From positions 191,832 through 255,831 of the forward strand of contig JAQUQI010000001.1 in assembly GCA_028716165.1 (NCBI GenBank): a DNA stretch of 64,000 nucleotides, given 5' to 3'. The notes under the pieces are model-generated. The model searched no databases. It was not told the origin of the DNA and saw only the letters and a list, made by a program, of their open reading frames with translations. The DNA is from Candidatus Omnitrophota bacterium (GTDB lineage Bacteria; Omnitrophota; Gorgyraeia; JABMRG01). Position numbers and translations under genes: made by a program. This document shows, one piece after another, positions 14,989 to 33,161 of the stretch. How positions within the stretch are numbered: position 1 is the stretch's first letter; each line of letters begins with the position of its first letter.

Positions 14989-16019
14989 AAATTTACCTTA
15001 AAGCCTCGGACAGAATCCCCCGCATGCGCCATAGCGTCGCCGGCATTATGCGATGCATATCTTCCTATCCGCTCCAGCATGGCCTTTGCCCGGGCCATTG
15101 AATCCAGCGGGTTTTCTCCAATGCAAAATTTACCGGGATAAATATCATAATGGCTCCTAAAAGCCGGCGGAGTAATGTCCGGCATAAAAACATTCGCACC
15201 GCATTTGAGAGCCTTTTCAATACCGTCTTTAGCAATCGTGCCGATAGCCGTTGTCGCCGGTATATGGGCGAGCGGCAATGCCAATCTTGCCGCGGCTATA
15301 ACACGCAATGCCAACTCAAGCCCGCCCGGGACATTATTTCCAAGAGGCGTATTGGGATGAGGTATAAACGGGCCTATTCCTATCATATCAAGGCCGAGTT
15401 CCCGCATTAAAAGTATATCATCGCAAAGCGTATCATATGTTTGACCCGGTAAGCCTGTCATGATACCGGATCCTGTCTGAAACCCCAAAGACTTCAGGCG
15501 TTTTATGCAGGATATCCTGTTATCATAGCAAGAGGGTTTTAGCTTTTTAAAAAGAGGCCTGTCTGAAGTTTCAAACCTTAAGAGATATCTATCGGAGCCG
15601 GCATCCTTGAGACTTTTATATTCGTCAAAATCCAGCTCCCCTAACGACAATGTAATACGGCAATCTGATTCTGATTTTATCCTCTTTATTATAGCGCACA
15701 GGTTATCCGTGCCATAGGCCTTGTCCTCGCCCGACTGTAAAAGTATCGTCTTATAACCGTGCCTGATTGCTCCAAGCGCTGTGTCTATTATTTCACCGGC
15801 GCTCATCCTGTAGCGCTTGACAAGGCCATTACCTTTCCTTAATCCGCAATACAGGCAGTTGCACGCGCAGTAATTGGAAAACTCTATAATACCTCTTATG
15901 TGGACCTCGTTTCCAAAACGCGCCGCCCGCTCGGAGTCTGCCGCGGCAAAAAGAGCGCCGGGGTCATCAGACTTTAACCATCGCAGGATATCTTCTCTTT
16001 TTATGTCCGGCATAATCAA
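14985..16019 (-). CDS. hydE: [FeFe]-hydrogenase maturase HydE (biotin-synthase-like radical SAM).
   Basis: CACNCLYCGLR Cx3Cx2C motif near the N-terminus, ~344 aa, BioB-like. Sits with hydG and hydF. Confidence 0.8.
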   Translation of the reverse strand: MIMPDIKREDILRWLKSDDPGALFAAADSERAARFGNEVHIRGIIEFSNYCACNCLYCGLRKGNGLVKRYRMSAGEIIDTALGAIRHGYKTILLQSGEDKAYGTDNLCAIIKRIKSESDCRITLSLGELDFDEYKSLKDAGSDRYLLRFETSDRPLFKKLKPSCYDNRISCIKRLKSLGFQTGSGIMTGLPGQTYDTLCDDILLMRELGLDMIGIGPFIPHPNTPLGNNVPGGLELALRVIAAARLALPLAHIPATTAIGTIAKDGIEKALKCGANVFMPDITPPAFRSHYDIYPGKFCIGENPLDSMARAKAMLERIGRYASHNAGDAMAHAGDSVRGFKVNL

Positions 16020-17512
16020 AAATAAAGGTCTCTCTCGCCTTTTTTTACCCGCTCATATAATTTGATAAATTCGCAAAACATATCCGGCATCTGTTCTTTT
16101 ATCTGTTTTATCTCCGATTCTATAACAGGTTCGGATTTTTTCTTTACCTCTTCTGTCGCGAAATCATCAAGCCATTCCCTGAATGTCAATACCGCGTTAA
16201 GCTTGCAAAATTTCCCTTCCTGCCCACTGCGCAATAATTCCATAATACACTTGCCTGTCCTGCCGCAGCGATAACCTGCCGTGCAAAAAGAACTTATATA
16301 CCCCATTGAGGCAAACTCGCCTATTACCTCCTCCAGACTGCCGGTATCGCCAAGGATAAACTGTTCTCTCTTGCCGTCAAGGCAGGCGTCATTGTCCGAG
16401 TAAGCGCCGATGCCTATTTTTGTAGAAGCGTCTGTTTGCGTGATACCAAGCGCCAATGCCTGCCGCCTCATCTGCCGCGTTTCGCGCGCGGTAATTATCA
16501 TGCCTGTATAAGGAACTGCCAGCCTTAAAACAATAATAAGCTTTTTGAAATCATCGTCTGATACTTTATGCCCCAAGGCGCTTATAAAAGGCGTGTTATC
16601 GGCAGGCTCAAGTCTGGGAAACGAAATAGTATGAGGGCCGATACCGAAATCCTCCTCAAGGGCCAATGAATGCGCGACAAGGCCCATGACCTCAAATCTC
16701 CAATCATAAAGCCCGAACAAGACGCCTATCCCGACATCATCTATACCGGCCTCCTGCGCCCTGTGCATGGTATACAAGCGCCATCCATAATTGTTTTTTA
16801 TGGTGCCGTGCGGATGGACCGTATTGTAAGTATCGCGGTGATAAGTCTCCTGAAAAACCTGGTATGTGCCTATTCCCGCTTCACGCAACCGGGCCAGCTC
16901 TTCCACCCTAAGAGGCGGGGCATTAACATTAACCCGTCTGATATTCCCAAACCCGTTTTTTGTTTTTACCTTTACGTCATATATGGCCTTTATCGTATCT
17001 ACCATATAGTCTATGCCGCAATCCGGATGTTCACCATAAACGACAACAAGCCTCTTGTGCCCTATTTCTCCGGCAAGCACTTTTACCTCGGATTTGACCT
17101 GCTCAAGGCTAAGCAATACCTTTTTTGACCGGTTATTGGAGCTTCGGAAACCGCAATAAAGGCAGTTATTTACACATAGATTGCTAAGATAAAGCGGGGC
17201 AAAAGTCACTATCCTGTTATCATACACCTTTTTCTTTATCTCCGCCGCGGCCCGCGCCATCAGCAAGATCAGGTCTTTGTCTTTAACGTTTAACAGGTAT
17301 GCCGTCTCCTCAAGGCTTAATGACTGTATGCTCATGGACTTGTCTATTATATCGCTTATTCTTTTTTTATCATTACCGTTACACGTATCCAGCTTTGCGA
17401 GTATTAAACTCTCATCAATAAAATCCCTGCCTGATTTCAGGTATTTTTCAACCTGGCACAGGGCCGGCCTGTTTTCAGACCACTGCCTCAAATCCTGACC
17501 GCAAATATTCAT
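16016..17512 (-). CDS. hydG: [FeFe]-hydrogenase maturase HydG (ThiH-like tyrosine lyase radical SAM).
   Basis: CVNNCLYCGF radical SAM motif, 498 aa, and a C-terminal auxiliary cluster motif CTAGYRCGRTGKC. Overlaps hydE and hydF by 4 bp. Confidence 0.85.
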   Translation of the reverse strand: MNICGQDLRQWSENRPALCQVEKYLKSGRDFIDESLILAKLDTCNGNDKKRISDIIDKSMSIQSLSLEETAYLLNVKDKDLILLMARAAAEIKKKVYDNRIVTFAPLYLSNLCVNNCLYCGFRSSNNRSKKVLLSLEQVKSEVKVLAGEIGHKRLVVVYGEHPDCGIDYMVDTIKAIYDVKVKTKNGFGNIRRVNVNAPPLRVEELARLREAGIGTYQVFQETYHRDTYNTVHPHGTIKNNYGWRLYTMHRAQEAGIDDVGIGVLFGLYDWRFEVMGLVAHSLALEEDFGIGPHTISFPRLEPADNTPFISALGHKVSDDDFKKLIIVLRLAVPYTGMIITARETRQMRRQALALGITQTDASTKIGIGAYSDNDACLDGKREQFILGDTGSLEEVIGEFASMGYISSFCTAGYRCGRTGKCIMELLRSGQEGKFCKLNAVLTFREWLDDFATEEVKKKSEPVIESEIKQIKEQMPDMFCEFIKLYERVKKGERDLYF

Positions 17513-18780
17513 TGTAAAAACTCTTTCCTCTCCGAATATGATACTACTCCGGCGTTAAGGTTAAATGGGGACAATGCCCTGGGTAAAACTCCTTTCACGT
17601 ATGATATGCACATACCGTAGTTTGTCATGGCAATGTTATGGGCGGCGGCCTGTTCCATCCTTGCCAGCATCTCCCGTCTTGATACCATGCATCCGCCGCA
17701 TTGTATAATCAGCTTGTATTCTTTCAGATTATCAGGAAAATCCCTGCCGGCACAGGAATCAAAGCGGATATCCTGGCCCGTATAATCTTTTATCCACCAC
17801 GGTATCTTTACCCTGCCTATGTCATCCTCTATCGGATGGTGGCTGCAACTCTCGGCTATAAGAACCTTATCGCCTGAAACCAGTTTGTCTATAACGCGCG
17901 CGGCCCTGGCCATGGCCTGGAGATCGGATTTCATTCTCGCGAATAATATTGAAAATGTGGTGCATTTTATATCGCGCGGGGTCTGGTCAAAAACCTGGCG
18001 GACGACTTGAGAATCACAGACCACGATCGCGGGAGGTACCTTTAATCCGCGCAGGGCATTAATATATCCGTCCTCTTTTACGACAAGCGCCATCTGGCCG
18101 TTATCCAGGGCGTCTCTTATGGTCTGCACTTGTGGCAATATTATCCGGCCCTTCGGCGCTTCCATGTCTATCGGGACCACCAATACGGCAATGCCTCCTT
18201 GCGGCATAAGGTCGCCTATTATAGGAGGAGGTTTTAAAAAATCTACCGGGACTATATCAATAAGGCATTTTTTGAATTCATGTATGGTAGCATTCCGGCG
18301 TTTGCTATCAATGCTTGATGAAATAATTATATGCCGCGTATAAGAACCCGCCTTATCAATAAAATCTTTATTGGGCATACCGGTATCGGATTTATTTATT
18401 ACTATGATAAGAGGGGCATTCTCTTTTTCCGCGCGCCGGGCTATGGATTCCTCATAATCCTGCCATATGCCGGGCTCTATAATTAACGTATATATATCCG
18501 CCCTTTTAAATACGGCCTCGGTTTTTTTAAGGCGCAGGGAAGAAAGCGAAGATATATCGTCAATACCGGCAGTATCCATAAAAAGCACGGGCCCTATAGG
18601 AAGAAGCTCCATCGTTTTCTCAACAATGTCAGTAGTCGTCCCGGGAACAGGCGAGGTTATGGATACGTCCTGATTGGTTATATAATTAAGAAACGCGGAT
18701 TTGCCCGTATTGACGCGGCCAAACAGCCCTATCTGAAGGCGGAGGGATTTAGGCGTCTTGAGCATCACGGCCTCCCGCAT
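17509..18780 (-). CDS. hydF: [FeFe]-hydrogenase maturation GTPase HydF. The real start is possibly the internal Met at ~18765.
   Basis: N-terminal P-loop GRVNTGKSAFLN and G-domain motifs (DTAG, NKSD). C-terminal cluster-binding motifs ESCSHHP and IQCGGCMV. 423 aa. Confidence 0.8.
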   Translation of the reverse strand: MREAVMLKTPKSLRLQIGLFGRVNTGKSAFLNYITNQDVSITSPVPGTTTDIVEKTMELLPIGPVLFMDTAGIDDISSLSSLRLKKTEAVFKRADIYTLIIEPGIWQDYEESIARRAEKENAPLIIVINKSDTGMPNKDFIDKAGSYTRHIIISSSIDSKRRNATIHEFKKCLIDIVPVDFLKPPPIIGDLMPQGGIAVLVVPIDMEAPKGRIILPQVQTIRDALDNGQMALVVKEDGYINALRGLKVPPAIVVCDSQVVRQVFDQTPRDIKCTTFSILFARMKSDLQAMARAARVIDKLVSGDKVLIAESCSHHPIEDDIGRVKIPWWIKDYTGQDIRFDSCAGRDFPDNLKEYKLIIQCGGCMVSRREMLARMEQAAAHNIAMTNYGMCISYVKGVLPRALSPFNLNAGVVSYSERKEFLQ

Positions 18781-19036
18781 ACGGTTTGCTCAACGATGAT
18801 TTGACGCTTATGCCCGCGATCTTTCCCAATTTACCCGTCAAGGCGCCTAATTCGTCTGTTGTCGCGTCAACAACCAGAGTTATAACATTAAGGCCCTTTT
18901 TGCCGCTGGGCACACCCATTCTCGCTAATATGATATCCCCGTAACCGGAGAGTATCTCATTTACCCTGGGGGCGTTTTTCTTCCTGTCCTCTACTATAAT
19001 ACCAATAAATCCCAGGCGTTTGTCTGTATTTGCCAT
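18749..19036 (-). CDS. Small ACT/NikR-C-like putative iron-only hydrogenase system regulator (TM1266-like), 95 aa.
   Basis: About 90 aa, with an IVEDR...VNEIL...GRMGVP...TGKLG pattern typical of the small protein family found next to hydEFG. Its 3' end overlaps the hydF start. Confidence 0.55.
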   Translation of the reverse strand: MANTDKRLGFIGIIVEDRKKNAPRVNEILSGYGDIILARMGVPSGKKGLNVITLVVDATTDELGALTGKLGKIAGISVKSSLSKPYAGGRDAQDA

Positions 19037-19075
19037 CGGTGGCGCCTTTTTACGCGTTTGATTCTTAAAATATTT

Positions 19076-19127
19076 CTTTTAAAAAAATAAACCCCAAAAT
19101 TACCAAAAATAAGCGGTAAGTTTGGGG
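19076..19127 (-). terminator. Rho-independent terminator ending the hydrogenase operon, just downstream of hydA1.
   Basis: The minus-strand transcript reads CCCCAAACTTACC-gcttattttt-GGTAATTTTGGGG, a 13-bp stem with one mismatch, followed by the U-tract tttattttttt. Confidence 0.6.
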
Positions 19128-19217
19128 AAATATTAAATACATGGTTTCCTTGGCTTTAGATTTTCAATCCTTACCGCAGAACGATTATGTTTAAAGGCCC
19201 TTGCCGGAAAGAGCCTT

Positions 19218-20963
19218 TTACTTTCTATAAAGAGGCCTTGGCAGATAATGAGTGTGTAAAAGCTTGTGTGATTTCTCGCTTAACGGTTTTATCAGAAATT
19301 CTTTATACAGTTTGATTATATATGGATTTTCATGCGCGAATCTTAACTTCCTGTCACTGTCATCCTGATACAAGCCCTTGGCCCTTATCACCCTTAACTG
19401 GTCAGTGGCTCCGTAGGGTTGGCCGCCGCCGCCTACACACCCGCCCGGACATGCCATAACTTCTATAAAATCATAAGGTATTTCTTTGCCTTTAGCGGAT
19501 GCTTCATGGACCCTGTCTAATACGCATTCAACATTACCCATGCCATGGGCCACTGCTATCCTGACCCTGGCGCCTTTTATGTCTATCTCGGCCTCCTTTA
19601 CGCCCAGCAATCCTCTTACAGGCGTAAATTCCACCTCTTTTAAGTTTTCGCCTGTCGCGTAAAAATACGCTGTTCTTATGGCAGCCTCCATAACGCCTCC
19701 TGTGGCGCCGAATATCACGCCCGCCCCGGTATAATCGCCGAGCATATGGTCAGGTTCTTCATCGGGGAGGTTTAGGAAATCAATGCCTGCCTGCTTTATC
19801 ATGCGGGCTAATTCTCTTGTCGTGATAGATATATCAACATCCTGCTGGCCTGATGAAAACATTTCCTTGCTTCTGGCAATCTCGTATTTTTTTGACGTGC
19901 ACGGCATTACAGAGACCATGAATATCCTGGATGCCTCAATCTTGTTCTTGTCCGCGTAATAGGTCTTTGCCAAAGCGCCCACCATTTCATGGGGGGATTT
20001 AGCCGACGAAAAATGTTCTATCATATCGGGATAAAACTTTTCCATAAAATCAACCCACGAAGGACAGCATGTGGTAATAAGCGGAAGCGGGCCTTTCTTA
20101 TGGACAAACCTGTTTATAAATTCAGACGCCTCCTCTATTACCGTAAGATCAGCGCCGAAACATGTGTCAAAGACAGCCTTAAACCCCATCCTTCTTAAAG
20201 CAGTGTAGATCTTGCCAGTCAGGTTCTCCCCCGGCCTGCACCCAAAGGCCTCTCCAAGAGCAACGCGGACAGCAGGGGCTATCTGCACCACGGGGTACTT
20301 ATCATTATCATAAAGCGCTTTCCAGACCGCGGGCGTCTGATCGTATTCAGCGATGGCCCCGGTAGGGCAATGGGCGGAGCACTGCCCGCATCTTATACAG
20401 GGGCTTTCTGCCAGTTCTATGTCCCCTGCCGCCGATATCCTGGTGCTGTGGCCTCTTTCCAGAAAAGAAAGGGCCCACACATCCTGCTGTTTCTGGCATA
20501 CTTGGACGCATCTTCCGCACAATATGCATTTTTCAGGCACAAGGGTTATTGTCTTTGTTGAATCGTCATTGGGTATCTGCCGCAAAAACTGGGGAAAAGC
20601 CGATTCTCTTATGCCGAAGTCCGAAGCGAGCTTCTGCAATTCGCAATTATTGTTTCTTGCGCATTTCAGGCAGTCGTTGGGATGGTTGGAGAGTATAAGC
20701 TCTAAGACATTTCTCCTTATGTCCTGCAATTCATCATCATGGGTTATTATGTCCATACCCTCTTCCAGCGGGGTACAGCACGAACGCAGCATCTTATTAC
20801 TGCCTTTTATTTTTACTATACATATGCCGCAGGCCCCTGTGGCATCAAGATCAGGGTGTTTGCAAAGAGACGGTATATTTATCTGTATTTCTTTGGCCGC
20901 GTCAAGTATGCTGGTTCCTTTTTTGACGCTGACCTCAATGTTGTTGATTTTAGCTTTTATCAT
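19218..20963 (-). CDS. hydA: [FeFe]-hydrogenase catalytic subunit HydA, bifurcating group A3 type, 581 aa.
   Basis: N-terminal 2Fe-2S ferredoxin-like domain plus 4Fe-4S domains. H-cluster motifs: L1 TTCCPSW, L2 MPCTSKKYE, L3 EVMACPGGCVGGGGQP. Confidence 0.9.
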   Translation of the reverse strand: MIKAKINNIEVSVKKGTSILDAAKEIQINIPSLCKHPDLDATGACGICIVKIKGSNKMLRSCCTPLEEGMDIITHDDELQDIRRNVLELILSNHPNDCLKCARNNNCELQKLASDFGIRESAFPQFLRQIPNDDSTKTITLVPEKCILCGRCVQVCQKQQDVWALSFLERGHSTRISAAGDIELAESPCIRCGQCSAHCPTGAIAEYDQTPAVWKALYDNDKYPVVQIAPAVRVALGEAFGCRPGENLTGKIYTALRRMGFKAVFDTCFGADLTVIEEASEFINRFVHKKGPLPLITTCCPSWVDFMEKFYPDMIEHFSSAKSPHEMVGALAKTYYADKNKIEASRIFMVSVMPCTSKKYEIARSKEMFSSGQQDVDISITTRELARMIKQAGIDFLNLPDEEPDHMLGDYTGAGVIFGATGGVMEAAIRTAYFYATGENLKEVEFTPVRGLLGVKEAEIDIKGARVRIAVAHGMGNVECVLDRVHEASAKGKEIPYDFIEVMACPGGCVGGGGQPYGATDQLRVIRAKGLYQDDSDRKLRFAHENPYIIKLYKEFLIKPLSEKSHKLLHTHYLPRPLYRK

Positions 20964-20965
20964 AA

Positions 20966-22768
20966 TTACTCCTTAATAACGGCGTCAAATTTGCATACCT
21001 CAAAACACTTTCCGCATTTTACGCACTTGGCCGCGTCTATAGTATAGCCCTGTTTGGAATCGCCGGTTATGGCCTTGACGGGACAATTTTTCGCGCAGAG
21101 CCCGCAGCGCCTGCATTTTTCGGTAATTATGCGATACGTCATAAGTTCGGCGCACTTGCCTGAACGGCATTTTTTAAGCTTTACATGCTCTTCATATTCG
21201 TCTCTGAAAAACCTTAAAGTTGACAATACGGGATTGGGGGCGGTTTGGCCCAGGCCGCAGAGTGAAGCGCGTTTTACAGTATTGCATATTCTTTCAAGCT
21301 TTACGATATCATCCATTGAGGCCCTGCCGGAGGCAATCTTTTTTAGATACTCAAGCATCTGGTATCCGCCTATACGGCAAGGCGCGCACTTCCCGCATGA
21401 TTCATCCACGCAAAAACCCAGATAGAATTTGGCAATATCAACCATGCAATCGGTTTCATCCATGACTATCATTCCGCCCGAGCCCATAATAGAGCCGAGC
21501 TTTTGCAGATTCTCATAATCTACAGGCGTATCAATGTATTCCACGGGTATCACGCCGCCGGAGGGCCCGCCGGTTTGAACAGCCTTGATCTTTTTATCAT
21601 CTATTAACCCGCCGCCTATATCATAAACGATCTCTCTTATCGTTATACCCATGGGGACTTCTATTAGCCCTGAATTCTTGACCTTTCCTGTAAGCGCGAA
21701 TACCTTGGTGCCCTTAGAATTCTGACTGCCTATGGAAGAAAACCACTTGGCCCCTTTCGTGAATATAACAGGCACATTGGCCAATGTCTCCACATTGTTT
21801 ATAACAGTAGGCCTTGACCACAGACCCCTGACAGACGGATAAGGCGGCCTCGGAGTCGGGACGCCGCGCTTGCCTTCAATTGAGGCGATAAGCGCTGTTT
21901 CTTCGCCGCAGACAAAGGCTCCGGCCCCAAGCCGTATCTCAAGTTCAAAGTTGAAATCACTGCCTAATATTCCGTTGCCGACAAGGCCGTATCCTCTGGC
22001 CTGTTCTATCGCATTTTGTATCCGCTTAATGGCCAACGGATATTCGGCCCTTATGTAGAAAAAACCCTTGCTCGCGCCTGTCGCGTAGCCGGCTATAAGC
22101 ATGCCCTCTATTACGGAATGAGGGTCGCCTTCCAATATGCCCCTGTCCATATAAGCCCCGGGGTCTCCTTCGTCGCCATTACATATTACGTATTTTTCAT
22201 CGGCCTCTATGTCCTTGGCAAAATTCCATTTCATCCACGTAGGAAAGCCTCCGCCGCCTCTGCCGCGCAGGCCGCTGTCCTTAAGCTGTTTTAACACATT
22301 GTCCTGGCTTTTGCCCGCTAATACGGCCTTGAGCCCCTGATAACCGTCACGGGCGATATAATCATCTATGCTTTCGGGATCTATGACGCCGCAATTTCTT
22401 AATACGACCTTGAGTTGTTTTCCGGATTTATCTTCATATCTGGCCGAGTCAAAGATTTTTTTACCGCATATATGCTGTTCAATAATACTGCGGGCAACGT
22501 CTTCATTAACATTCCTATAAATCACCGGCCCTGACCAGGCAGTATTAACTTCAACTACAGGCTCCGCGAAACACAAGCCGTTACATCCTGTCTTCTTAAG
22601 ACAAACATCAAGGCCTTTTTCATCTATAAGCTTTTTTATCAGGTCAAAAACGGCCGAAGCGCCCGCGGCGATACCGCATGTGCTCATGCCTACCCTTATG
22701 CACGTCTTGGGTTCTTTCCTGAATTTATTCCTTATCTGGTCAATATCGTTTTTTATGATTTTTGACAT
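20966..22768 (-). CDS. hydB: Hydrogenase flavoprotein subunit HydB (NuoF-like, NADH-binding), 600 aa. Carries an N-terminal thioredoxin-like 2Fe-2S module and C-terminal 2x[4Fe-4S] ferredoxin.
   Basis: GLRGRGGGGFPTWMKW FMN/NADH motifs, a CGKCAPCR cluster, and C-terminal CRRCGLCAKNCP...CVKCGKCFEVC. Confidence 0.85.
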   Translation of the reverse strand: MSKIIKNDIDQIRNKFRKEPKTCIRVGMSTCGIAAGASAVFDLIKKLIDEKGLDVCLKKTGCNGLCFAEPVVEVNTAWSGPVIYRNVNEDVARSIIEQHICGKKIFDSARYEDKSGKQLKVVLRNCGVIDPESIDDYIARDGYQGLKAVLAGKSQDNVLKQLKDSGLRGRGGGGFPTWMKWNFAKDIEADEKYVICNGDEGDPGAYMDRGILEGDPHSVIEGMLIAGYATGASKGFFYIRAEYPLAIKRIQNAIEQARGYGLVGNGILGSDFNFELEIRLGAGAFVCGEETALIASIEGKRGVPTPRPPYPSVRGLWSRPTVINNVETLANVPVIFTKGAKWFSSIGSQNSKGTKVFALTGKVKNSGLIEVPMGITIREIVYDIGGGLIDDKKIKAVQTGGPSGGVIPVEYIDTPVDYENLQKLGSIMGSGGMIVMDETDCMVDIAKFYLGFCVDESCGKCAPCRIGGYQMLEYLKKIASGRASMDDIVKLERICNTVKRASLCGLGQTAPNPVLSTLRFFRDEYEEHVKLKKCRSGKCAELMTYRIITEKCRRCGLCAKNCPVKAITGDSKQGYTIDAAKCVKCGKCFEVCKFDAVIKE

Positions 22769-22780
22769 TTAGTTTGGCCT

Positions 22781-23659
22781 TTATTTTGTTTCCGCGGCGG
22801 ATTCTTTTACGTAGGCGGAGATTATATTCAACACATCTTCTTTCTTTACCTTGCCGTGTATTTTATTATTTATCATTACAACAGGGGCGAGCCCGCAGCA
22901 GCCAAGGCATCTGACTATCTGCAAATGGAATAAACCGTCCTGCGTAGTCTGGCCTTCTTCAATGTCAAGTATGCTCTTAAACTCCTGGAGTATATCGTTG
23001 GCGCCTTTCAGATAGCAGGCGGTACCCATGCACAAGGAAATTGTGTATTTACCCGGCGGGTCAAGCTTAAAATAATTGTAAAAAGTTATAACCTCGTATA
23101 TGCGCGCCAGCGGGACATCAAGCATGCGCGACAATTCAAACGATATTCCTCTTGGGACATACCCATAGTGATTTTGTATTTCATGCAATATCATGACAAG
23201 AGAGCCTTTTTTCCCTTTCCATCTTTCGGCCAGGGTATTTATTTCATCTATTATCTCTCTATGCCTTTTACCCGTCTTGCTAATATGGCCTTCTATCAGC
23301 TTGAGCAGGGCCTCGGGTTTTATGGGCTTTTCAACAATAGCCCTTACCGGAAGATTTTTGGGATCAGGCTTGAGTTCAACCGGGAAATTAATCTCCTTGT
23401 GCGCGCCCGTGATAAGTATTATCGGTATGTTCTTACTGGCGGCATCCTCCGATATGATCTTTGCCGTGTCAAGGCCTTCCGTCTTATAAGACATCATCAT
23501 ATCCAGCAGTATAAGATCAGGCGATTCACTCTTCACCTTCTGCACGCCCTCCGTGCCCTCAAAGGCGTTTATAGTATTATAACCGCTGTTGTTAAGGAGC
23601 ACTGAAATAGCTTCAACAAAATCCTTATCATCATCAATAATCAAAATAGTATTGCGCAT
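22781..23659 (-). CDS. hydC: Fusion protein: N-terminal response-regulator receiver (REC) domain joined to a NuoE-like thioredoxin-like [2Fe-2S] ferredoxin (HydC), 292 aa.
   Basis: REC: ILIIDDD...DLILLDMMM...IILITG...EKPIKPE. NuoE: CMGTACYLKGA...CLGCCGLAPV. This is the first gene of hydC-B-A set 1. Confidence 0.8.
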   Translation of the reverse strand: MRNTILIIDDDKDFVEAISVLLNNSGYNTINAFEGTEGVQKVKSESPDLILLDMMMSYKTEGLDTAKIISEDAASKNIPIILITGAHKEINFPVELKPDPKNLPVRAIVEKPIKPEALLKLIEGHISKTGKRHREIIDEINTLAERWKGKKGSLVMILHEIQNHYGYVPRGISFELSRMLDVPLARIYEVITFYNYFKLDPPGKYTISLCMGTACYLKGANDILQEFKSILDIEEGQTTQDGLFHLQIVRCLGCCGLAPVVMINNKIHGKVKKEDVLNIISAYVKESAAETK

Positions 23660-23662
23660 TTT

Positions 23663-25501
23663 TTAACCTTTTTTTAGCTTAAAAATAAAAGAATTGCCGC
23701 CAGTTTTTGGCTCAACCCATATACTGCCGCCGTGAAGCCGTATGATTTCTCTGGTGATAAAAAGGCCGATGCCCGTCCCCTTGACCTTATCCTCGCCTTC
23801 ATAATGAAGGCGCGAAAACTTTTTGAAAAGCCTGTCCATATCAATAACCGATATGGGTTTGCCTTCATTATACACCTCTATCTCTATATAGCCTTCGGAG
23901 ACCCTTGAGGAAAGGATTATATTTCCATCCCTTTTGCCATATTTTATCGCGTTTGTCAAGAGATTGTTTGCCGCAATACGCAGAAGGCCCGAATCAGCCG
24001 TGACTTTTATATCACCGGCTATATTGTTTTGTATAGTCATTTTCTTATCCTGGGCCTGATGTATAAGCGCCTCAACGGAGGGGTCAAATATTTCCTTTTT
24101 TATAAAAAACTCCGTTTTTCTTAATACCATCTCCTGTTTTTCAATCCTGCTCAAATTGAGAAAATTCTTTACTGTCTGCGTAAGATAATCAAGGTTGCGC
24201 GAAACAGAGTCAAGCGCCTTTGTCTGCGCTTCATTGATAGGCCCGAGTAATTTATTATTGAGCGAATATACATTCAATATTATAGAAGCCAATATGCCCT
24301 TCAGCTCGTGGGACACAAATCCGACGAGATCCAGATAGCTCTTGTTCATCATCTCGCATTCCTGTTTTGAAGACAAAAGGCTTTTTTCCCGTTCCGACAA
24401 TTTTACGGCCATAGCATTAAACGCGCCCGCAAGCCGGTCAAATTCCTTGATTGAACTATTCTCAACAAGCCTGGACGACAGATCTCCTTGCGATATGCGG
24501 CTTGACGCGTCAAGGGCCTTGTATAAAGGGCTCAATATCTTTGAGGCAAGTATATAAGAAGTGAACATCGCCAGAAAAGCCGCTACGGCTATGATGGCCA
24601 AAAACATCAGAAACCGTTCAATCATCAAATCATTAAACGGTTTTTCAAGCATCCCCACATATAATATACCTATGGTATCGCCGGTCAAATTTTTTATTGG
24701 CCTATACGCGGTAAGATACCAATCAGAGACTACAAAGGCCCTGCCGTTCCAATAACCGTCTTTTCGCATGACCTTATCGTATACTTCTTCGGATACCCTT
24801 GTGCCTATAGCGCGTTGGCTTGCAAGGGTCAGGACATTGGTGGTTATCCTGACGTCGTCTTGAAATATCGTAACGGTCCCTACCGGCAGATTATTGTAAA
24901 ATTCATGGCCGAAGACAACGTCTCTTATATTATCCACAAGGGCAAAATCCCTGTTAATTATCCTCCCGGCATAACGTGCCGCCGATACATTTCCGGCCTC
25001 ATCCATTACCGGCATGGCGTATTCTATAGCAAGCGCGCTTTCGGAAAAAAGCTTATCGTCGGGCCTGGCCATGGGCGTATATTCTATCTTGGTTTTTACC
25101 CTGTCAAGCAATACATTGGAGATGGCCTTCAATTCATCGGCTTCTATAATCCGGCTGCCGCCGCAAAGATTACCTTTAAACGCGGCGCGGACAATATCGC
25201 TTTTGACCGCGTCTTTTAAGGATACCGGCACTTCATAGACATAATCAACATCCAATATGCCTTTTACGGATATAAGGCTTTTGGTATCTCGGGTAAGGAT
25301 AAGGGCTGTTTTTATTTTCTCCAATTCATTGTCATATACTATACGGGCGGCCTCTATTTTTTTGGCGACCTCTTTTTGCGCCCGGGCTACAATATCATGC
25401 TGTATAGTATAATAGCCGAGAAAGGCCGTAAGGAGCGCTGTTACAACAATTTGAAGAAACAGCGTGAAAAATATATAAAATTTCAAATTACGGGTTTTCA
25501 T
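23663..25501 (-). CDS. Sensor histidine kinase with two TM helices, a ~280-aa extracytoplasmic Cache-like sensor, HAMP, HisKA and HATPase_c; 612 aa.
   Basis: TM1 at residues ~8-30, TM2 at ~296-320. H-box FVSHELKGIL. G-boxes GTGIGLFITREIIRLHGGSIWVE. Confidence 0.8.
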   Translation of the reverse strand: MKTRNLKFYIFFTLFLQIVVTALLTAFLGYYTIQHDIVARAQKEVAKKIEAARIVYDNELEKIKTALILTRDTKSLISVKGILDVDYVYEVPVSLKDAVKSDIVRAAFKGNLCGGSRIIEADELKAISNVLLDRVKTKIEYTPMARPDDKLFSESALAIEYAMPVMDEAGNVSAARYAGRIINRDFALVDNIRDVVFGHEFYNNLPVGTVTIFQDDVRITTNVLTLASQRAIGTRVSEEVYDKVMRKDGYWNGRAFVVSDWYLTAYRPIKNLTGDTIGILYVGMLEKPFNDLMIERFLMFLAIIAVAAFLAMFTSYILASKILSPLYKALDASSRISQGDLSSRLVENSSIKEFDRLAGAFNAMAVKLSEREKSLLSSKQECEMMNKSYLDLVGFVSHELKGILASIILNVYSLNNKLLGPINEAQTKALDSVSRNLDYLTQTVKNFLNLSRIEKQEMVLRKTEFFIKKEIFDPSVEALIHQAQDKKMTIQNNIAGDIKVTADSGLLRIAANNLLTNAIKYGKRDGNIILSSRVSEGYIEIEVYNEGKPISVIDMDRLFKKFSRLHYEGEDKVKGTGIGLFITREIIRLHGGSIWVEPKTGGNSFIFKLKKG

Positions 25502-25552
25502 AAAACCTTTTCCATTCCCGCCTAAAGTACCGCGCGGTATTGCCAGATAGAT

Positions 25553-25894
25553 TTATCGGCGTATTTTATTAATAGAGTTTACGGCAAGCAGGGCATACGT
25601 CATAACGCTTGCCCCTCCGACAAGAACGGCCACCATGCACGCCTCTATCATTTCATCCTTGGACCAGCCCGCGTCAAGGCAGTGCTTGACAGCCCTGGGT
25701 ATGCAAACAGGGCATTTCTGGCTAACGCCGGCAACCAGGAGTAAAAGCCATTTCATTTTTTGGCTTATCCTTCCTTTTCCGGTCATAGCATTCTTGCTTT
25801 GAATAAAAGCCTCGTATTGCCCGGGCACAGACTTTTTGACATCATTCATAAGCGCCTGGAATTTCTTCAATATATCATCTGATCCATATTTCAT
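25553..25894 (-). CDS. Carboxymuconolactone decarboxylase/AhpD-like family protein. The ORF-track start at 25993 would overlap hydA2, so the internal Met (MKYGSDD) at 25894 is preferred.
   Basis: About 113 aa from the internal start, with a KCPVCIPRAVKH CxxC...H motif like the AhpD core. Confidence 0.5.
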   Translation of the reverse strand: MKYGSDDILKKFQALMNDVKKSVPGQYEAFIQSKNAMTGKGRISQKMKWLLLLVAGVSQKCPVCIPRAVKHCLDAGWSKDEMIEACMVAVLVGGASVMTYALLAVNSINKIRR

Positions 25895-25944
25895 ATCACG
25901 CCTCTTTTTTATATCGGTTGCCGTATTAGATAAAACAGGCCTTA

Positions 25945-27870
25945 TCAACTGCCGGAGCCGGGCCCGCGCTTTGTTTTTTTGACATTTATCCATTTGCCGC
26001 GGGCGGTATAACCTGTATGCAGCAATTTATGGCTAAGATGGCCGCATGGGCCTTCTTTAAAATATTGCTCGTATATTTGTTTGACAACAGGGTTTTCGTG
26101 TGATTTTCTTAATACAAGGCTTTCGTCCTCGGCGTAGATTGCCTTTATACGGGCGCCCCTGATATCAGGGCCTGTGGGTATAGGCTGGCCGCCGCCGCCA
26201 ATGCAACCGCCCGGGCATGCCATTACCTCAATAAAATGATAGTCGTCCAGCTGTCCTTCGCAGAGCATGTCCATGACTTTTTTGGCATTAGCCGTGCCGT
26301 GCGCTACCATAACCTTCAGGGTAACGCCTTCTAAAAACTTCCATTGCTCCAGGGTATCTTTGATAATAATCTGCGCTTTTCTTATTCCTTCCACTCCCCT
26401 TACAGGCATTACGCGTAAATTTTCAAAAGGCGCCTCGCGGCCTGTAACCAGTTCGTAAGCCGTCCTTATGGCAGCCTCCATTACTCCTCCCGTAGCGCCA
26501 AAAACAAGCCCGGCGCCGCTGCCGGTTCCAAGAGGATCGTCAAAATCAGACAGGGGCAAATTCGGCAGGTCTATGCCGCACTCTTTTATCATGCCCGCTA
26601 ATTCACGCGTCGTAAGGGCATAATCCACGTCTTTATACCCTGAACTGTTCATTTCAGGGCGTTGGCATTCAAATTTTTTCGCTGAACACGGCATCAGCGA
26701 AACAGAAACTATATCAGCCGGGTCAATATTATTCCTTTCGGCATACCAGGTCTTGGCTATAGCGCCGAACATCTGCTGAGGGCTTTTGGCTGTTGACAGG
26801 TGGCCTAATCTACCGGGATAAAAATGTTCAATAAATTTTACCCATCCCGGCGAGCAGGATGTTATCTGCGGAAGCCTGACACTCTTGTCTTTGCCGGCAA
26901 TGGCCTTTTTAAGCCTTAAAAGCAGTTCGGTCCCTTCTTCCATTATCGTAAGATCCGCGGTAAAATTGGTATCAAAAACCTTGTCAAAACCTATGCGTTT
27001 TATGGCAGTGTTCAGCTTTTTAGTAACACTTGTACCCGGTTTTAGGCCAAATTCCTCGCCGATAGCAGCCCTGGGGCTCGGCGCCGTCTGGATGATAACA
27101 TGCTTTTTGGCATCTTCAATAGCCTTCCATATTCCTTCAGCAGGGTCTTTGGCCTTTAATGCTCCGGTGGGGCATCTATTGATACACTGGCCGCAGTTAA
27201 TGCAGACTACATCGTTTAAAGGCATATCCATATAGGTGGATATTTTTGTGCCGGCACCCCTGTGCACAGCCTCCAAAGCTCCTACCTCCTGCAAATCAAT
27301 ACATGTCCTGACACAGCGCCGGCAGAGTATGCATTTATTCATATCGCGCTCAACAGCATAGCTTGACTGGTCTTTATCATATCTCGGGGCCTTGATGTGC
27401 CCGAATTTATAAGAAGTAACTCCGTATTCTTTTGCCAATACCTGCAATTCGCAGTTATTGTTACGCGCGCACGAATAACACTCGCCATAATGGTTTCTTA
27501 ACAATAATTGTATTATATTGCGCCGGGCACGGCGAATACGCGGCGAATATGTCCTTATATTTATCGGGCCGAATATGGGATACGAACAGGATGCCTGTAA
27601 AGTCCGCTCATTGTCCACTTCAACAACGCATATCCTGCATACGCCCGCCAGGCAGAGATCATCATGCTGGCAGAGGGTAGGTATCTTTATATTTACCATA
27701 CGCGCGGCCTCAAGTATGGTAGTGCCCATGGCAACCTTTACGGCTATGCCGTCAATATTAACCGTAATGTCGCCCCCAATAGCGTCTTTTTTTATCTCGC
27801 CCGTTTCCTGCCTTCTCTGGCTTACAGGCGCCCTTGATGTCTCACGCGCGAAAGCTTTATTATCAGCCAT
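25945..27870 (-). CDS. hydA: Second [FeFe]-hydrogenase large subunit (HydA2), 641 aa. It has a non-canonical L1 motif TSCSPGW, a 2Fe-2S N-domain and a ~35-aa N-terminal extension.
   Basis: L1 ITSCSPGW, confirmed on the DNA (26842-26862 reverse-complement = ACA TCC TGC TCG CCG GGA TGG). L2 SLMPCSAKKFE, L3 IEVMACPGGCIGGGGQP. N-terminus LCQHDDLCLAGVCRIC. Confidence 0.85.
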   Translation of the reverse strand: MADNKAFARETSRAPVSQRRQETGEIKKDAIGGDITVNIDGIAVKVAMGTTILEAARMVNIKIPTLCQHDDLCLAGVCRICVVEVDNERTLQASCSYPIFGPINIRTYSPRIRRARRNIIQLLLRNHYGECYSCARNNNCELQVLAKEYGVTSYKFGHIKAPRYDKDQSSYAVERDMNKCILCRRCVRTCIDLQEVGALEAVHRGAGTKISTYMDMPLNDVVCINCGQCINRCPTGALKAKDPAEGIWKAIEDAKKHVIIQTAPSPRAAIGEEFGLKPGTSVTKKLNTAIKRIGFDKVFDTNFTADLTIMEEGTELLLRLKKAIAGKDKSVRLPQITSCSPGWVKFIEHFYPGRLGHLSTAKSPQQMFGAIAKTWYAERNNIDPADIVSVSLMPCSAKKFECQRPEMNSSGYKDVDYALTTRELAGMIKECGIDLPNLPLSDFDDPLGTGSGAGLVFGATGGVMEAAIRTAYELVTGREAPFENLRVMPVRGVEGIRKAQIIIKDTLEQWKFLEGVTLKVMVAHGTANAKKVMDMLCEGQLDDYHFIEVMACPGGCIGGGGQPIPTGPDIRGARIKAIYAEDESLVLRKSHENPVVKQIYEQYFKEGPCGHLSHKLLHTGYTARGKWINVKKTKRGPGSGS

Positions 27871-29068
27871 GAAATTCTTTCTCCTTTTCTACCGCCTTTG
27901 ACAGCTTATACTCCCGCTTAAAATGGCCGATCGCGGATATGAAAGGCTTGGGGCACGATTGGCCCAGCCCGCATTTTGAGGCTGTCTGCATAGTCTCGGA
28001 CAAAGACAATAACTCATCCAGATATTTCTTGCTGCAAAGCCCATTTCTTATCATGTTTAAGCCTTCAAGCAGAACGGGAATTCCTTCTCTGCATGGAGTG
28101 CATTGGCCGCATGATTCATCCTTGAAAAATCTCAAGAAATTCTCCACGACTTCAAGCATGCGGCGTTCTTTTGAAAAAACTATAAGAGAGCCTCCTGTTG
28201 AGAAATCCTCAAAACAGACAGCCCTGCTAAAATGCCTTCTGGCGACAATCTCCCCGGAGGCTCCGGCAGAGACCGCCTTAGCGTTTTCTCCGCCAGCAAT
28301 TTTTAATATAGACTTTATATCGGAACCAAACTCTACTTCATAGACGCCCGGCCTTTTGCAATCGCCTGATACGCTTAGTAGTTTTGTCCCTGTTGATTTC
28401 GCTGTGCCGAAACTCTTAAACCAATCGGCGCCTTTTTCCACAATATGAGCAAAATTACTGAATGTCTCAACATTATTCAATACCGTCGGATAACCGTTAT
28501 AGCCCGTATTTACCGGAAAAGGCGGCCTGTTTCTCGGCTCGCCGCGGCAGCCCTCAAGCGATTCTATCAATGCTGTTTCTTCGCCGCACACATAAGCGCC
28601 AGAGCCAAGTTTTATTTCAATATCAAAATCAAAACCCTGCCTGCCCATAATGGACATGCCCAGGGCGTTTTCTTTTCGCATCCCTTCAAGAACGCCTTCA
28701 AGAAAACCCGTAAACGATTTGTATTCGCCGCGAAGGTATAAAAAACCCGTATCAGCGCCGCTTGCAAAAGCGGCAATAGCCATACCCTCAAAGATAAGGC
28801 GCGGATATTCCAAAAGCATTACCCTGTCTTTAAAAGTTCCGGGTTCGCCTTCATCCGCGTTACAGACAACATATTTTTTTTCAGAACGCGCGGCAGATAC
28901 CAGATTAAGCTTTATGCCGGCGGGAAAACCCGCCCCTCCTCTGCCGCGAAGGCCCGAATCCCTTATCCGGCTCAATACACCGGCCCTGCCAAGCTCTATG
29001 GCTTTTTTTAACCCCGCGTACGGAATAATTTCGCTGAAGATGACCGCGCCTTTTCTTTTTTCAGGCAT
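27863..29068 (-). CDS. hydB: NuoF-like flavoprotein subunit (HydB2), short form at 401 aa, lacking the extra N- and C-terminal Fe-S modules.
   Basis: GLRGRGGAGFPAGIKL, YVCGEETALIESLEG, ESCGQCTPCREG. Confidence 0.8.
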   Translation of the reverse strand: MPEKRKGAVIFSEIIPYAGLKKAIELGRAGVLSRIRDSGLRGRGGAGFPAGIKLNLVSAARSEKKYVVCNADEGEPGTFKDRVMLLEYPRLIFEGMAIAAFASGADTGFLYLRGEYKSFTGFLEGVLEGMRKENALGMSIMGRQGFDFDIEIKLGSGAYVCGEETALIESLEGCRGEPRNRPPFPVNTGYNGYPTVLNNVETFSNFAHIVEKGADWFKSFGTAKSTGTKLLSVSGDCKRPGVYEVEFGSDIKSILKIAGGENAKAVSAGASGEIVARRHFSRAVCFEDFSTGGSLIVFSKERRMLEVVENFLRFFKDESCGQCTPCREGIPVLLEGLNMIRNGLCSKKYLDELLSLSETMQTASKCGLGQSCPKPFISAIGHFKREYKLSKAVEKEKEFHG

Positions 29069-29567
29069 AATCTCTCCTTGTTAATGGCTTCTTTGAAAGC
29101 CTGCGGACTATATCTTTGACATCTTTTGGCGTAATATTGCCGACCAGTTCACCGTCTATTAAAGCGGCGGGCGCCTGGTCGCACATGCCTATGCATCCGG
29201 TCTCTTCAAGAACTATATTTTTATATTTACCCGGGCGGCCTTTTTTTATCTTTAAGGCTTTTTCAAACTCCTTTTGTATCTTCCCACTGCCCGCCATTAT
29301 ATTAGGCATACAATTGCTTATCCGTATCGTATGCCTGGCTTTCGGGCCTGACGTAAGAAAGGCGTAGAAGGTTACCACAGAATACACCTCAACAGGGTGT
29401 ATCCCGAACCTGTCGGCCGTCTCCTGCATATCCTTATCCGATATATATCCTTTTTTCTGTTGTATGCCTTGCAATACAGGCAATAATTTTGAGCGCGTTT
29501 CATCACACACGATAATTTCTTTGCCGTCTTTTACCGTCTTTTTTGTTACAGCGCATTGTTTAACCAT
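29061..29567 (-). CDS. hydC: NuoE-like thioredoxin-like ferredoxin subunit (HydC2), 168 aa. The second Cys of the first CxxxxC pair appears replaced (CMPNIM).
   Basis: VYSVVTFYAFL...IRISNCMPNIMAG...ETGCIGMCDQAPA. Overlaps hydB2 by 8 bp. Confidence 0.65.
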   Translation of the reverse strand: MVKQCAVTKKTVKDGKEIIVCDETRSKLLPVLQGIQQKKGYISDKDMQETADRFGIHPVEVYSVVTFYAFLTSGPKARHTIRISNCMPNIMAGSGKIQKEFEKALKIKKGRPGKYKNIVLEETGCIGMCDQAPAALIDGELVGNITPKDVKDIVRRLSKKPLTRRDYA

Positions 29568-29584
29568 AAAACCAGGCCCCCTGT

Positions 29585-29956
29585 TTATTTTCCTGTGATT
29601 GAATTGACCTTATTAATAAGGTCTTCCGGGCTTACAGGTTTTTCAAGAAATCCGGCGCAAGGCAATACTTCATCACAACTGCCATAATCGTATCCGGTAA
29701 CCTTACTTACGCCGCTAAGCATTATTACGGGCGTTGGCAGGCCTTTGGCCTTAAGCCTGGCCGCCAAAGCTATGCCGTCATCAGCCTCCTGCATCATAAT
29801 ATCAAGAAATATAATATCAAAAGCCTCTTTGTCTATTATCAATTCAGCATCCTTTACATTATGGGCCATGGACACGCTATGCCCTTTTGCCTCAAGCACA
29901 GCCTTGCCCGCTTCGGCAAATTCCCTGTCATCATCCACCATTAAAATCCTGGCCAT
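29585..29956 (-). CDS. Stand-alone response-regulator receiver (CheY-like). Preferred start is MARILMVDDD, with a strong SD AGGAGG 7 nt upstream.
   Basis: ILMVDDD...DIIFLDIMM...VIMLSG...LEKPVSPEDL. The ORF-track start at 30013 has no SD. Confidence 0.75.
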   Translation of the reverse strand: MARILMVDDDREFAEAGKAVLEAKGHSVSMAHNVKDAELIIDKEAFDIIFLDIMMQEADDGIALAARLKAKGLPTPVIMLSGVSKVTGYDYGSCDEVLPCAGFLEKPVSPEDLINKVNSITGK

Positions 29957-30083
29957 AATACCCTCCTGATTTTCCACCGAAACGATAAACCCAAAATTTA
30001 TACCCCGTCCCATGTGCCGGAGTTTGAAACCCCGCAGTCAGGATAACTGCCGGCCTTTCCGGCGCGCGATTACAATCACCAAT

Positions 30084-30701
30084 TCAGGCAAAAAAAGTAA
30101 GTGTTTCAAGCGCGCGGGAGAGATCCACATCTTCAACCCTGACACCTTCGGGCACATTAAGTTTTACAGGAGCAAAATTCATTATACAGCGTATGCCTGA
30201 TCCGATTATCTTGTCGGCAACCGCCTGCGCCGCGCGGGCAGGCGTTGTTATTATCGCTATGGATATACGTTTTGCCGCGGCAATATCAGCCATCTTTTCC
30301 ATAGGCTCAATAGTAATACCGGCTATGGTCTTTCCTATTTTTTTCGGGTTTATATCAAATACCGCGACAATATTCAACCCGTCTTTGGCAAAGCCCGGAT
30401 ATATCATTAATGCGGAACCCAATCTGCCGGCACCCGCAATGCATATGTTCCAATCCTGGTCTTTTCTTAATATGGATTCAAGGGCCTTTCTTAACTCATT
30501 GGTATTGTACCCTGCTCCGCTTATGCCAAAGGAGCCGAAAAAACCCAGATCTTTCCTCACCTGGGCATCGCTTAGATTAAGCCTTGCGCCTATAGTAGAT
30601 GACGACACCTTGCCTATATTAAGCTCGGATAAGGCCTTGACTTCTCTTAAGTAAGCGAATAACCTTGATATGGTCCCTGTGGGAATTTTTTTTTCTTTCA
30701 T
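30084..30701 (-). CDS. rex: Redox-sensing transcriptional repressor Rex.
   Basis: N-terminal wHTH (ISRLFAYLREV), Rossmann NADH-binding NICIAGAGRLGSAL, ~205 aa. First gene of the hydrogenase operon. Confidence 0.75.
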   Translation of the reverse strand: MKEKKIPTGTISRLFAYLREVKALSELNIGKVSSSTIGARLNLSDAQVRKDLGFFGSFGISGAGYNTNELRKALESILRKDQDWNICIAGAGRLGSALMIYPGFAKDGLNIVAVFDINPKKIGKTIAGITIEPMEKMADIAAAKRISIAIITTPARAAQAVADKIIGSGIRCIMNFAPVKLNVPEGVRVEDVDLSRALETLTFFA

Positions 30702-30723
30702 AAAGCAATCACTTATCTTAAAT

Positions 30724-30763
30724 CTGTAATTAATTTCACAGATACTGTGCTTTTTTTCACGAA
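30724..30763 (-). promoter_or_regulatory. Two adjacent Rex-box-like palindromes between the -10 and the rex start codon. Minus-strand reads cGTGAAaaaaaGCACag and cTGTGAAattaaTTACAGa.
   Basis: They match the TTGTGAA-N4-TTCACAA consensus at 10-11 of 14 positions, with the GTG/CAC cores and N4 spacing intact. Confidence 0.3.
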
Positions 30764-30772
30764 TAGGTTTTT

Positions 30773-30801
30773 ATATTAACTCATTTTTTAAGCTGTGTCA
30801 A
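30773..30801 (-). promoter_or_regulatory. Sigma70-like promoter for the rex-hydrogenase operon: -35 TTGACA (30801..30796) and -10 TAATAT (30778..30773), 17-nt spacer.
   Basis: Read directly on the minus strand: TTGACAcagcttaaaaaatgagtTAATAT. Confidence 0.4.
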
Positions 30802-31507: not shown

Positions 31508-31522
31508 GATAAAGAAGTTATT

Positions 31523-33160: not shown

Positions 33161-33161
33161 A

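Follow-up and report, generated by a model that had tools for sequence, protein, structure and literature searches.

Electron-bifurcating [FeFe]-hydrogenases set the balance of H2, NADH and ferredoxin in anaerobic communities. As regards the control of their activity, the links to signaling that we are aware of are putative sensory hydrogenases and kinases that are assumed to act on transcription. Here we describe a gene from an uncultured Candidatus Omnitrophota bacterium in which the HydC subunit of a hydrogenase that is, judging from its sequence, of the bifurcating type has been joined in frame to an N-terminal two-component receiver (REC) domain. The gene lies in a stretch of 64,000 nucleotides of contig JAQUQI010000001.1, which was analyzed as a whole and is referred to below as the window.

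The HydC subunits of the solved HydABC enzymes (T. kivui 8a6t_C, A. woodii 7q4v_C and T. maritima 7p5h_C) and NuoE/Nqo2 of complex I have the same four Cys ligands as the protein described here, and the gene order HydC-HydB-HydA is also shared. The HydC and NuoE proteins that have been solved or described carry no receiver, whereas the fusion adds about 130 N-terminal residues, with a REC fold tethered to helix 1. In cryo-electron microscopy and simulation work on HydABC, the N-terminal four-helix bundle of HydC lies at the HydB/HydA interface (PMC10021017), and the C-terminal domain with cluster C1 has been proposed to swing between an 'in' position near the flavin mononucleotide (FMN) and an 'out' position towards B3/B4, thereby gating bifurcation (PMC10021017; a related proposal is made in PMC9304861). 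The conformation of this C1 domain varies with the redox state (PMC10021017).

Signaling genes in hydrogenase (hyd) clusters are already known. They comprise putative sensory [FeFe]-hydrogenases (HydS, group C) and the kinase, phosphatase, DRTGG or HATPase genes of bifurcating-hydrogenase clusters (Zheng et al. 2014, as cited in PMC9304861; PMC11406978; PMC8542988). These systems likewise have signaling proteins within hyd clusters, but sensing is there assigned to the hydrogenase-like protein, and other genes or proteins are the presumed targets of regulation. Here, the receiver sits on a structural subunit of the catalytic complex, and a membrane kinase of the Cache type is the sensor. Among the response regulators whose outputs are enzymatic are the CheB methylesterase, the diguanylate cyclases PleD and WspR, and RpfG. 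Their layout is the same as in the fusion, with the REC N-terminal to the output and joined to it through alpha5 and a short linker; their outputs are self-contained enzymes, however, whereas the output here would be one subunit of a multi-subunit iron-sulfur flavoenzyme. Single-domain regulators of the CheY/DivK kind have the same catalytic residues, and the nearest non-fused relatives of our receiver also stand alone. Those regulators are free proteins, in contrast to the fused REC, which is held covalently on a redox-enzyme subunit and has a Pro-rich loop for alpha4 and an aliphatic switch position. In full-text literature searches, we came across no account of a receiver that is fused to HydC/NuoE or acts on it. 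The parts (REC, HydC/NuoE and a Cache kinase) are ordinary, and what appears to be new is a response regulator with an iron-sulfur flavoenzyme subunit as its output or, seen from the other side, a HydABC that contains its own two-component switch.

The fusion gene, a single open reading frame (ORF), and its parts are as follows.

22781..23659, minus strand: REC::HydC fusion gene, single ORF with an ATG start, 292 amino acids plus stop
23276..23659, minus strand: REC domain, residues 1-128, with acidic pocket D9-D11, phospho-acceptor D53 (codon 23501-23503), T84 and K111-P112
23249..23275, minus strand: hinge, residues 129-137 (TGKRHREII), which links REC alpha5 to the first HydC helix
22784..23248, minus strand: HydC/NuoE-like domain, residues 138-292, an N-terminal helical bundle followed by a thioredoxin-like [2Fe-2S] domain

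The encoded protein is identical to NCBI MDD5503874.1, from a 301-kb contig of a Candidatus Omnitrophica metagenome-assembled genome (MAG), which is annotated as 'NAD(P)H-dependent oxidoreductase subunit E'. Pfam places two significant, non-overlapping domains contiguously in the ORF: Response_reg (PF00072) covers residues 5-122 with E 1.3e-17 and a score of 64.4 bits (gathering cut-off 30.2 bits; profile positions 1-110 of 111), and 2Fe-2S_thioredx (PF01257), of the NuoE/HydC family, covers residues 142-283 with E 3.3e-47 and a score of 160 bits (cut-off 24.8 bits). Among the NCBIfam models, hits to the N-terminal half include the DivK type and many other response regulators (DVU0259/DivK family, E 7e-17), while the HoxE, NuoE and FdsG equivalogs match the C-terminal half. 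The original prediction had read this ORF as a complete CheY-like receiver joined in frame to a canonical NuoE thioredoxin-like ferredoxin. The in-frame joining and the ferredoxin are borne out, the latter by its PF01257 score, by its alignment with solved HydC chains and by the four [2Fe-2S] ligands C210, C215, C251 and C255 (C-x4-C ... C-x3-C), and the motifs that had been quoted (IIDDDKDF, LILLDMMM, IILITG, EKPIKPE, CMGTACYLKGA and CLGCCGLAPV) are all present in the translation. The receiver is complete in its catalytic set, since E. coli CheY D12/D13/D57/T87/K109 align with D/D/D53/T84/K111; the conserved Asp that was to be checked by alignment is thus in place, opposite CheY D57. The fold of the receiver is nevertheless not fully canonical, as helix alpha4 is not predicted. 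The beta4-beta5 segment is proline-rich and spans 26 residues, compared to 21 in CheY, and a conserved Pro-rich loop, FPVELKPDPKNLPV, stands in place of alpha4.

An AlphaFold2 model of the fusion protein, built on a 48-sequence alignment (pLDDT 81, pTM 0.54), contains strands beta1-beta5 and helices alpha1, alpha2, alpha3 and alpha5 of the receiver. Residues 115-145 form one continuous helix that runs from REC alpha5 into HydC helix 1, and helices at residues 132-196 are followed by the beta-alpha-beta domain. At the REC-HydC junction, the family consensus of the hinge is G-x-E-H-R, and the conserved Gly suggests that the hinge may be a short joint rather than a rigid rod. Residues 138-289 cover the whole HydC subunit of solved complexes (E 8e-40 to 5e-31), with the best value for T. 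kivui HydC (8a6t_C; phmmer E 8e-40; chain residues 15-166 covered). Foldseek comparison with the solved HydC chains gave a probability of 1.0 and an rmsd of 7-9 Å, because the two sub-domains are oriented differently. The matches of a Foldseek search of the PDB were NuoE/HydC chains or ordinary response regulators, and none of them spans both domains.

The fusion is confirmed to be real, in frame and not confined to this genome. The original prediction had proposed a search of other genomes; over about 5.8 billion proteins, clustered at 90% identity, such a search returned at least 120 protein clusters with 52-100% identity, all of about 280-317 amino acids and all with PF00072 and PF01257, and those that are named come nearly all from Candidatus Omnitrophota MAGs of many studies. 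ORF calling on contigs, with one genome per species, yielded 21 in-frame fusions (L001-L021) from different studies, almost all of them Omnitrophota. In the 120 listed clusters, K111 and all four Cys ligands are invariant (120/120), T/S84 is retained in 114, the acidic-pair residues in 108-116, and D53 in 109, with H, N or E at position 53 in the other 11. The databases already contain the fusion as 'NuoE' or, at JGI, as 'NuoE/CheY-like', its architecture visible and uninterpreted.

In the window, the fusion gene belongs to a tightly packed, co-directional cluster on the minus strand, with the order Rex - REC2 - HydC2 - HydB2 - HydA2 - CMD/AhpD-like - histidine kinase - REC::HydC - HydB1 - HydA1 - TM1266-family - HydF - HydG - radical-SAM. 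The gaps are 3 nucleotides between kinase and fusion, 12 between fusion and HydB1 and 2 between HydB1 and HydA1. The immediate partners of the fusion are:

23663..25501, minus strand: sensor histidine kinase, 612 amino acids, with TM, sCache_3, TM, HAMP, HisKA (H-box FVSHELKG) and HATPase_c
20966..22768, minus strand: HydB1, 600 amino acids, NuoF-like, with an N-terminal Cys-rich part, FMN/NADH site, SLBB, NuoF 4Fe-4S and a C-terminal 2x[4Fe-4S] ferredoxin (Bfu-type BfuB)
19218..20963, minus strand: HydA1, 581 amino acids, [FeFe]-hydrogenase catalytic subunit, with H-cluster motifs TTCCPSW / MPCTSKKYE / EVMACPGGCVGG

The fusion is the only HydC gene for the HydB1-HydA1 pair in this HK-REC::HydC-HydB-HydA unit, and unfused HydC proteins that occupy the same operon slot in Fibrobacterota, Elusimicrobia, TA06 and one Planctomycetota MAG share 64-73% identity with its HydC part. 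Because it fills the HydC slot of a pair with no other HydC and resembles both operonic and solved HydC, the fusion protein is, on sequence grounds, a structural HydC subunit and not a free regulator. By definition, BfuB has a NuoF FMN domain, SLBB, NuoF 4Fe-4S and a ferredoxin-type 2x[4Fe-4S] domain, and BfuC is NuoE-like (PMC9304861). HydB1 (PF01512, PF10531, PF10589, PF00037/PF12838) and HydA1, which has a NuoG-like N-terminus and intact H-cluster motifs (PF13510, PF10588, PF02906, PF02256), together with REC::HydC fit this domain definition of a Bfu/group A3 electron-bifurcating HydABC. HydA1 matches the NCBIfam model 'NADH-dependent [FeFe] hydrogenase group A6' with a score of 795 bits, where the cut-off is 765. 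The start of HydB1 differs between annotations, as NCBI gives 573 amino acids (P0291), beginning 27 codons past the first ATG of the 600-residue ORF, while JGI orthologs have 600; in many relatives, a small gene of its own encodes the N-terminal ~115 residues of HydB.

The kinase at 23663..25501 is presumed to be the cognate kinase of the fusion. Pfam finds no DNA-binding response regulator encoded in the window cluster, and for this reason the fused receiver, perhaps along with REC2, would be its obvious target. In 19 of the 21 loci with the fusion, the gene of an orthologous kinase lies upstream and ends 3-51 nucleotides before the fusion starts, and the presence of this kinase follows the state of the receiver: an adjacent Cache-HAMP kinase is found in 19/20 loci with an intact receiver compared to 0/4 with a degenerate one. 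The latter are the four loci with readable upstream DNA and come from different sub-clades. In P0116 (D53N), the sole kinase is a hybrid 1.8 kb away, beyond three unrelated genes; Rex lies directly upstream in P0099 (D53E), unrelated genes in P0048 (D53E), and a carbamoyltransferase in L020 / P0110, where the acidic pair is lost. A variant of the kinase was seen in L015-L017, where only a DHp+CA core of 229-230 amino acids, with no Cache sensor, directly follows the CMD/AhpD-like gene; the CMD/AhpD-like protein might be a redox input to the kinase.

Receivers of the same kind also occur as free proteins in hyd clusters. The nearest non-fused relatives of the REC part are stand-alone receivers of ~128 residues with 35-58% identity, found among 123 candidates of a REC-only search whose list is not a census and which did not return the fused orthologs. 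All three free relatives whose context was examined (3/3) sit in [FeFe]-hydrogenase clusters: L084 has the order Cache-kinase - HydB - HydA - HydC - REC and L085 the order HydB - HydA - HydC - HydG - HydE - REC - TM1266 - HydF, while in L086, from a Syntrophus sp. MAG (GCA_013824645.1), the REC directly follows a hydrogenase H-domain::HisKA-HATPase protein. The receivers of the hyd loci that we studied have a beta4-beta5 segment of 24-28 residues, against 21 in CheY. In the fused type this segment reads GAxKExxFPFELKPxxxxLPVKxVxEKP, and in free receivers that follow HydA1 (in other Omnitrophota, L044/45 and Brocadiia) it reads GIRKxMxLPFxFEPDExWLPVKAVLEKP, which is clearly of the same kind. 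A REC gene also stands directly 5' of HydC2-HydB2-HydA2 in the second hydrogenase module (module 2) of Omnitrophota and Riflebacteria. By 'Rosetta stone' logic, the existence of the fusion therefore predicts that free receivers in hyd clusters bind HydC.

Single tblastn hits that span REC and HydC had suggested further fusions in module 2 of L019, in Riflebacteria loci and in L053/L061/L063, but ORF calling ruled these out, as the two genes are separate and 13-25 nucleotides apart. The L086 locus also holds, at 3907-7907, a 688-residue protein with ferredoxin domains, an [FeFe]-hydrogenase H-domain, HisKA and HATPase_c, followed by the receiver of the same subfamily and a REC-PAS-kinase hybrid, a set that looks like a candidate H2-sensing phosphorelay.

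When the comparison was extended to 1.84 billion cluster representatives, in which the Omnitrophota family collapses to one, at least 8 further clusters below 50% identity were found to have a REC plus NuoE-like architecture, one of them labeled 'NuoE/CheY-like chemotaxis protein' by the JGI pipeline. The receivers in these clusters belong to another type, which is canonical and has an alpha4 segment of 21 residues, and in one group the acid pocket is degenerate; the use of another REC type indicates that the REC-NuoE fusion arose several times. The contexts of three of these fusions are varied. L079 is a Cache-kinase/NtrC/REC-REC/REC::HydC-HydB-HydA cluster. In L080 (JGI metagenome 3300056889, 7001-13900), a REC::NuoE with a degenerate acid pocket heads a NuoF-like / NuoG-N-terminal / HdrA-like / MvhD(FlpD) / HdrBC-like cluster with no hydrogenase, and the REC-NuoE linkage therefore reaches other NuoEF-type redox complexes. 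L081, from a Pseudomonadota MAG (GCA_043813155.1), has REC::NuoE with DRTGG, HATPase_c_2 and a HydS-like protein. Directly upstream of REC::NuoE in L081, at 4572-5342, a REC is fused to a glycine-cleavage H-protein (lipoyl carrier) domain. A further variant is P0188, a 301-residue metagenome protein that joins a NuoE-like [2Fe-2S] domain to an OmpR-type winged helix, with the NuoE-like module taking the receiver's place in an OmpR-family regulator; it could be a redox-sensing transcription factor.

These observations lead us to lean, if only slightly, towards the view that the hydrogenase itself is switched by phosphorylation, with a signal passing from the kinase through Asp53 to HydC. In this view, the HydC of a bifurcating-type HydA1B1C has gained an N-terminal receiver; the membrane Cache-HAMP kinase would detect an extracytoplasmic ligand and phosphorylate Asp53, and the ensuing change on the T84/K111 side and in the unusual loop would travel along alpha5, cross the hinge (about 5-9 residues) and reach helix 1 of the four-helix bundle of HydC. 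A receiver tethered to helix 1 seems well placed to alter the seating or motion of HydC, and phosphorylation could in this way act on the enzyme post-translationally, switching or tuning its electron flow or its state of assembly. In genomes that encode a receiver of this subfamily as a small protein of its own within the hyd cluster, binding to HydC would be its mode of action. A more far-reaching version, which we consider tentative and rather doubtful, is that two-component phosphorylation directly gates flavin-based electron bifurcation, through a dedicated receiver family that docks on the NuoE-like subunit and governs either the in/out swing of this subunit or the way it sits on HydB; members of the family would be fused to HydC in Omnitrophota, and Riflebacteria, Brocadiia, Eremiobacterota and others would have them as free proteins. 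The original prediction of a phospho-switch on the hydrogenase has thus gained comparative support from the coupled kinase, its loss along with the receiver chemistry, the REC subfamily and the recurrent fusions, but phosphotransfer, the direction of signaling and an effect on catalysis are what we infer from these comparisons.

Several points weigh against a phosphorylation switch on HydC. AlphaFold2 predicts no helix alpha4, and residues 85-106 are instead a low-confidence loop (pLDDT about 60); the switch position is aliphatic, with Ile/Val where an aromatic residue is expected. Because of these two features, the output mechanism of the receiver may be atypical. The pTM of 0.54 goes with an inter-domain geometry that is not confident. 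The co-retention of kinase and receiver gives a Fisher p = 4.7e-4, a value whose weight is lessened by its being computed over related genomes with kinship ignored. One locus, L018, has an intact receiver and no adjacent kinase, with Rrf2, a ferredoxin and a hybrid-cluster protein upstream. Finally, lineages without Asp53 keep the domain, which shows that the REC also has a phosphorylation-independent role.

Signaling could also run in the opposite direction, with the HydC receiver serving as a phosphate sink or relay whose rate of (de)phosphorylation is set by the redox state or conformation of the hydrogenase, so that the enzyme would report redox or H2 status, for instance to REC2 or to extra RECs. 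Phosphate-sink receivers are an established motif. In several clusters, one kinase is indeed accompanied by two or more receivers: the window encodes REC2 as well as the fused REC, an extra REC follows HydA1 in L003, L008, L011, L013, L014 and L021, and L079 has a REC-REC protein and an NtrC-type regulator. The dependence of the C1 domain conformation on redox state (PMC10021017) would suit such a reporter as well. In many Omnitrophota loci (L007, L009, L010), however, the fused REC is the sole receiver next to the kinase, so that a sink would have no local competitor, and the window cluster encodes no output regulator; we consider this direction of flow unlikely. It is also quite improbable that the window protein carries a mere pseudo-receiver, that is, a structural add-on providing an oligomerization or docking interface independently of phosphorylation while the kinase signals elsewhere. 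The 11 of 120 clusters that keep the domain with H, N or E at position 53, the non-canonical alpha4 region and the degenerate acid pockets of the Hdr-linked fusions P0226 and P0231 would all accord with it, and for the Asp-less sub-clades this explanation is probably true. The window protein, on the other hand, keeps the complete catalytic set, as 109/120 clusters keep D53; its kinase is translationally coupled, 3 nucleotides away, and is missing exactly where the catalytic residues are lost; and many loci have no other nearby receiver for the kinase.

There is very little probability, in our judgment, that the protein is a free redox-sensing response regulator that works outside the hydrogenase with its NuoE-like [2Fe-2S] domain as sensor or effector. 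A regulator-like NuoE architecture exists in P0188, but the fusion fills the HydC slot (12 nucleotides to HydB, with HydB and HydA 2 apart) of a pair that has no other HydC, and, over its HydC part, it shares 64-73% identity with bona fide operonic HydC proteins and aligns with T. kivui HydC along the full length of the latter (E 8e-40). The chance that a sequencing or assembly frameshift merged two genes, one of the scenarios named in the original prediction as its refutation, is negligible. In the related genome L031, REC and HydC are indeed two ORFs that overlap by 4 nucleotides, yet that HydC still begins with hinge residues (MTGK...), and for this reason the split has the appearance of a later fission or of a sequencing error at this site. 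Since the same in-frame junction and the G-x-E-H-R hinge are conserved in at least 120 clusters and in 21 genomes from different studies, a merge of this kind is excluded.

The remaining genes of the cluster comprise module 2, the Rex and CMD/AhpD-like genes and a maturation set (14985..19036).

30084..30701, minus strand: Rex-type redox-sensing repressor, at the head of the co-directional cluster
29585..30013, minus strand: REC2, stand-alone receiver of module 2, core from MARILMVDDD (about 29956), catalytic set DD-D-S-F-K
29061..29567, minus strand: HydC2, 168 amino acids, unfused NuoE-like, first Cys pair degenerate (SNCMPNIM)
27863..29068, minus strand: HydB2, 401 amino acids, minimal NuoF-like, without N-terminal 2Fe-2S and C-terminal ferredoxin domains
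25945..27870, minus strand: HydA2, 641 amino acids, [FeFe]-hydrogenase, with TSCSPGW, Ser being at the second Cys of the TSCCPxW motif
25553..25993, minus strand: CMD/AhpD-like protein with a CPVC motif, between HydA2 and the kinase
18749-19036, minus strand: TM1266-family protein, maturation set
17509-18780, minus strand: HydF, maturation set
16016-17512, minus strand: HydG, maturation set
14985-16019, minus strand: radical-SAM protein, probably HydE, maturation set

As had been predicted, the upstream module has the same two parts as separate genes, REC2 and HydC2, 17 nucleotides apart. They are not the direct precursor of the fusion, because REC2 and HydC2 are only 29% and 25% identical to the fused parts, which marks the pair as an old, distant paralog. 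Since HydB2 lacks the N-terminal 2Fe-2S and C-terminal ferredoxin domains, module 2 falls outside the Bfu definition. TSCSPGW replaces the usual TSCCPxW in HydA2 and in all 14 full-length relatives of the HydA2 type, while HydA1-type proteins are mostly Cys-Cys; genes of the HydA2 type were found in L001, L002, L004, L006, L012, L015, L017, L019, L030, L038-L043 and L061. We take the Ser of TSCSPGW in HydA2 to fall at the proton-relay Cys, and module 2 may be a catalytically distinct or a sensory hydrogenase. HydC2 lacks one of the first two [2Fe-2S] Cys ligands, and several Omnitrophota orthologs (L002, L004, L015, L017) have a single or shifted Cys, while the C-x4-C is intact in the homologs of L019 and Riflebacteria.

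In a promoter and terminator scan of 18500-31000, the counts were the same as in shuffled sequence. Upstream of Rex, a minus-strand run at 30860-37341 encodes an Ogg glycosylase, a thioredoxin-reductase-like flavoprotein, two rubrerythrin-family proteins, an FNR-like reductase and a PNPOx-like protein, and makes up an oxidative-stress/repair run. At the other end, a stop-free frame of at least 3513 codons (2-10540, minus strand) runs off the window start and is presumably a giant gene of the kind reported for Omnitrophota.

A receiver placed on HydC, the proposed moving gate, provides a concrete and testable handle on the control of bifurcation. If confirmed, the arrangement would represent a new output class for two-component signaling, namely a subunit of an iron-sulfur flavoenzyme complex, and a switch based on the fusion could serve engineered H2 production. 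Were the more far-reaching version to hold, a signal received by a Cache-kinase, or H2 itself by way of a hydrogenase-kinase fusion, would turn Bfu enzymes on or off, or shift them between modes, within seconds and without new expression, and the independent REC::NuoE fusions, including those linked to Hdr, would then amount to a general control layer for Bfu-type enzymes.

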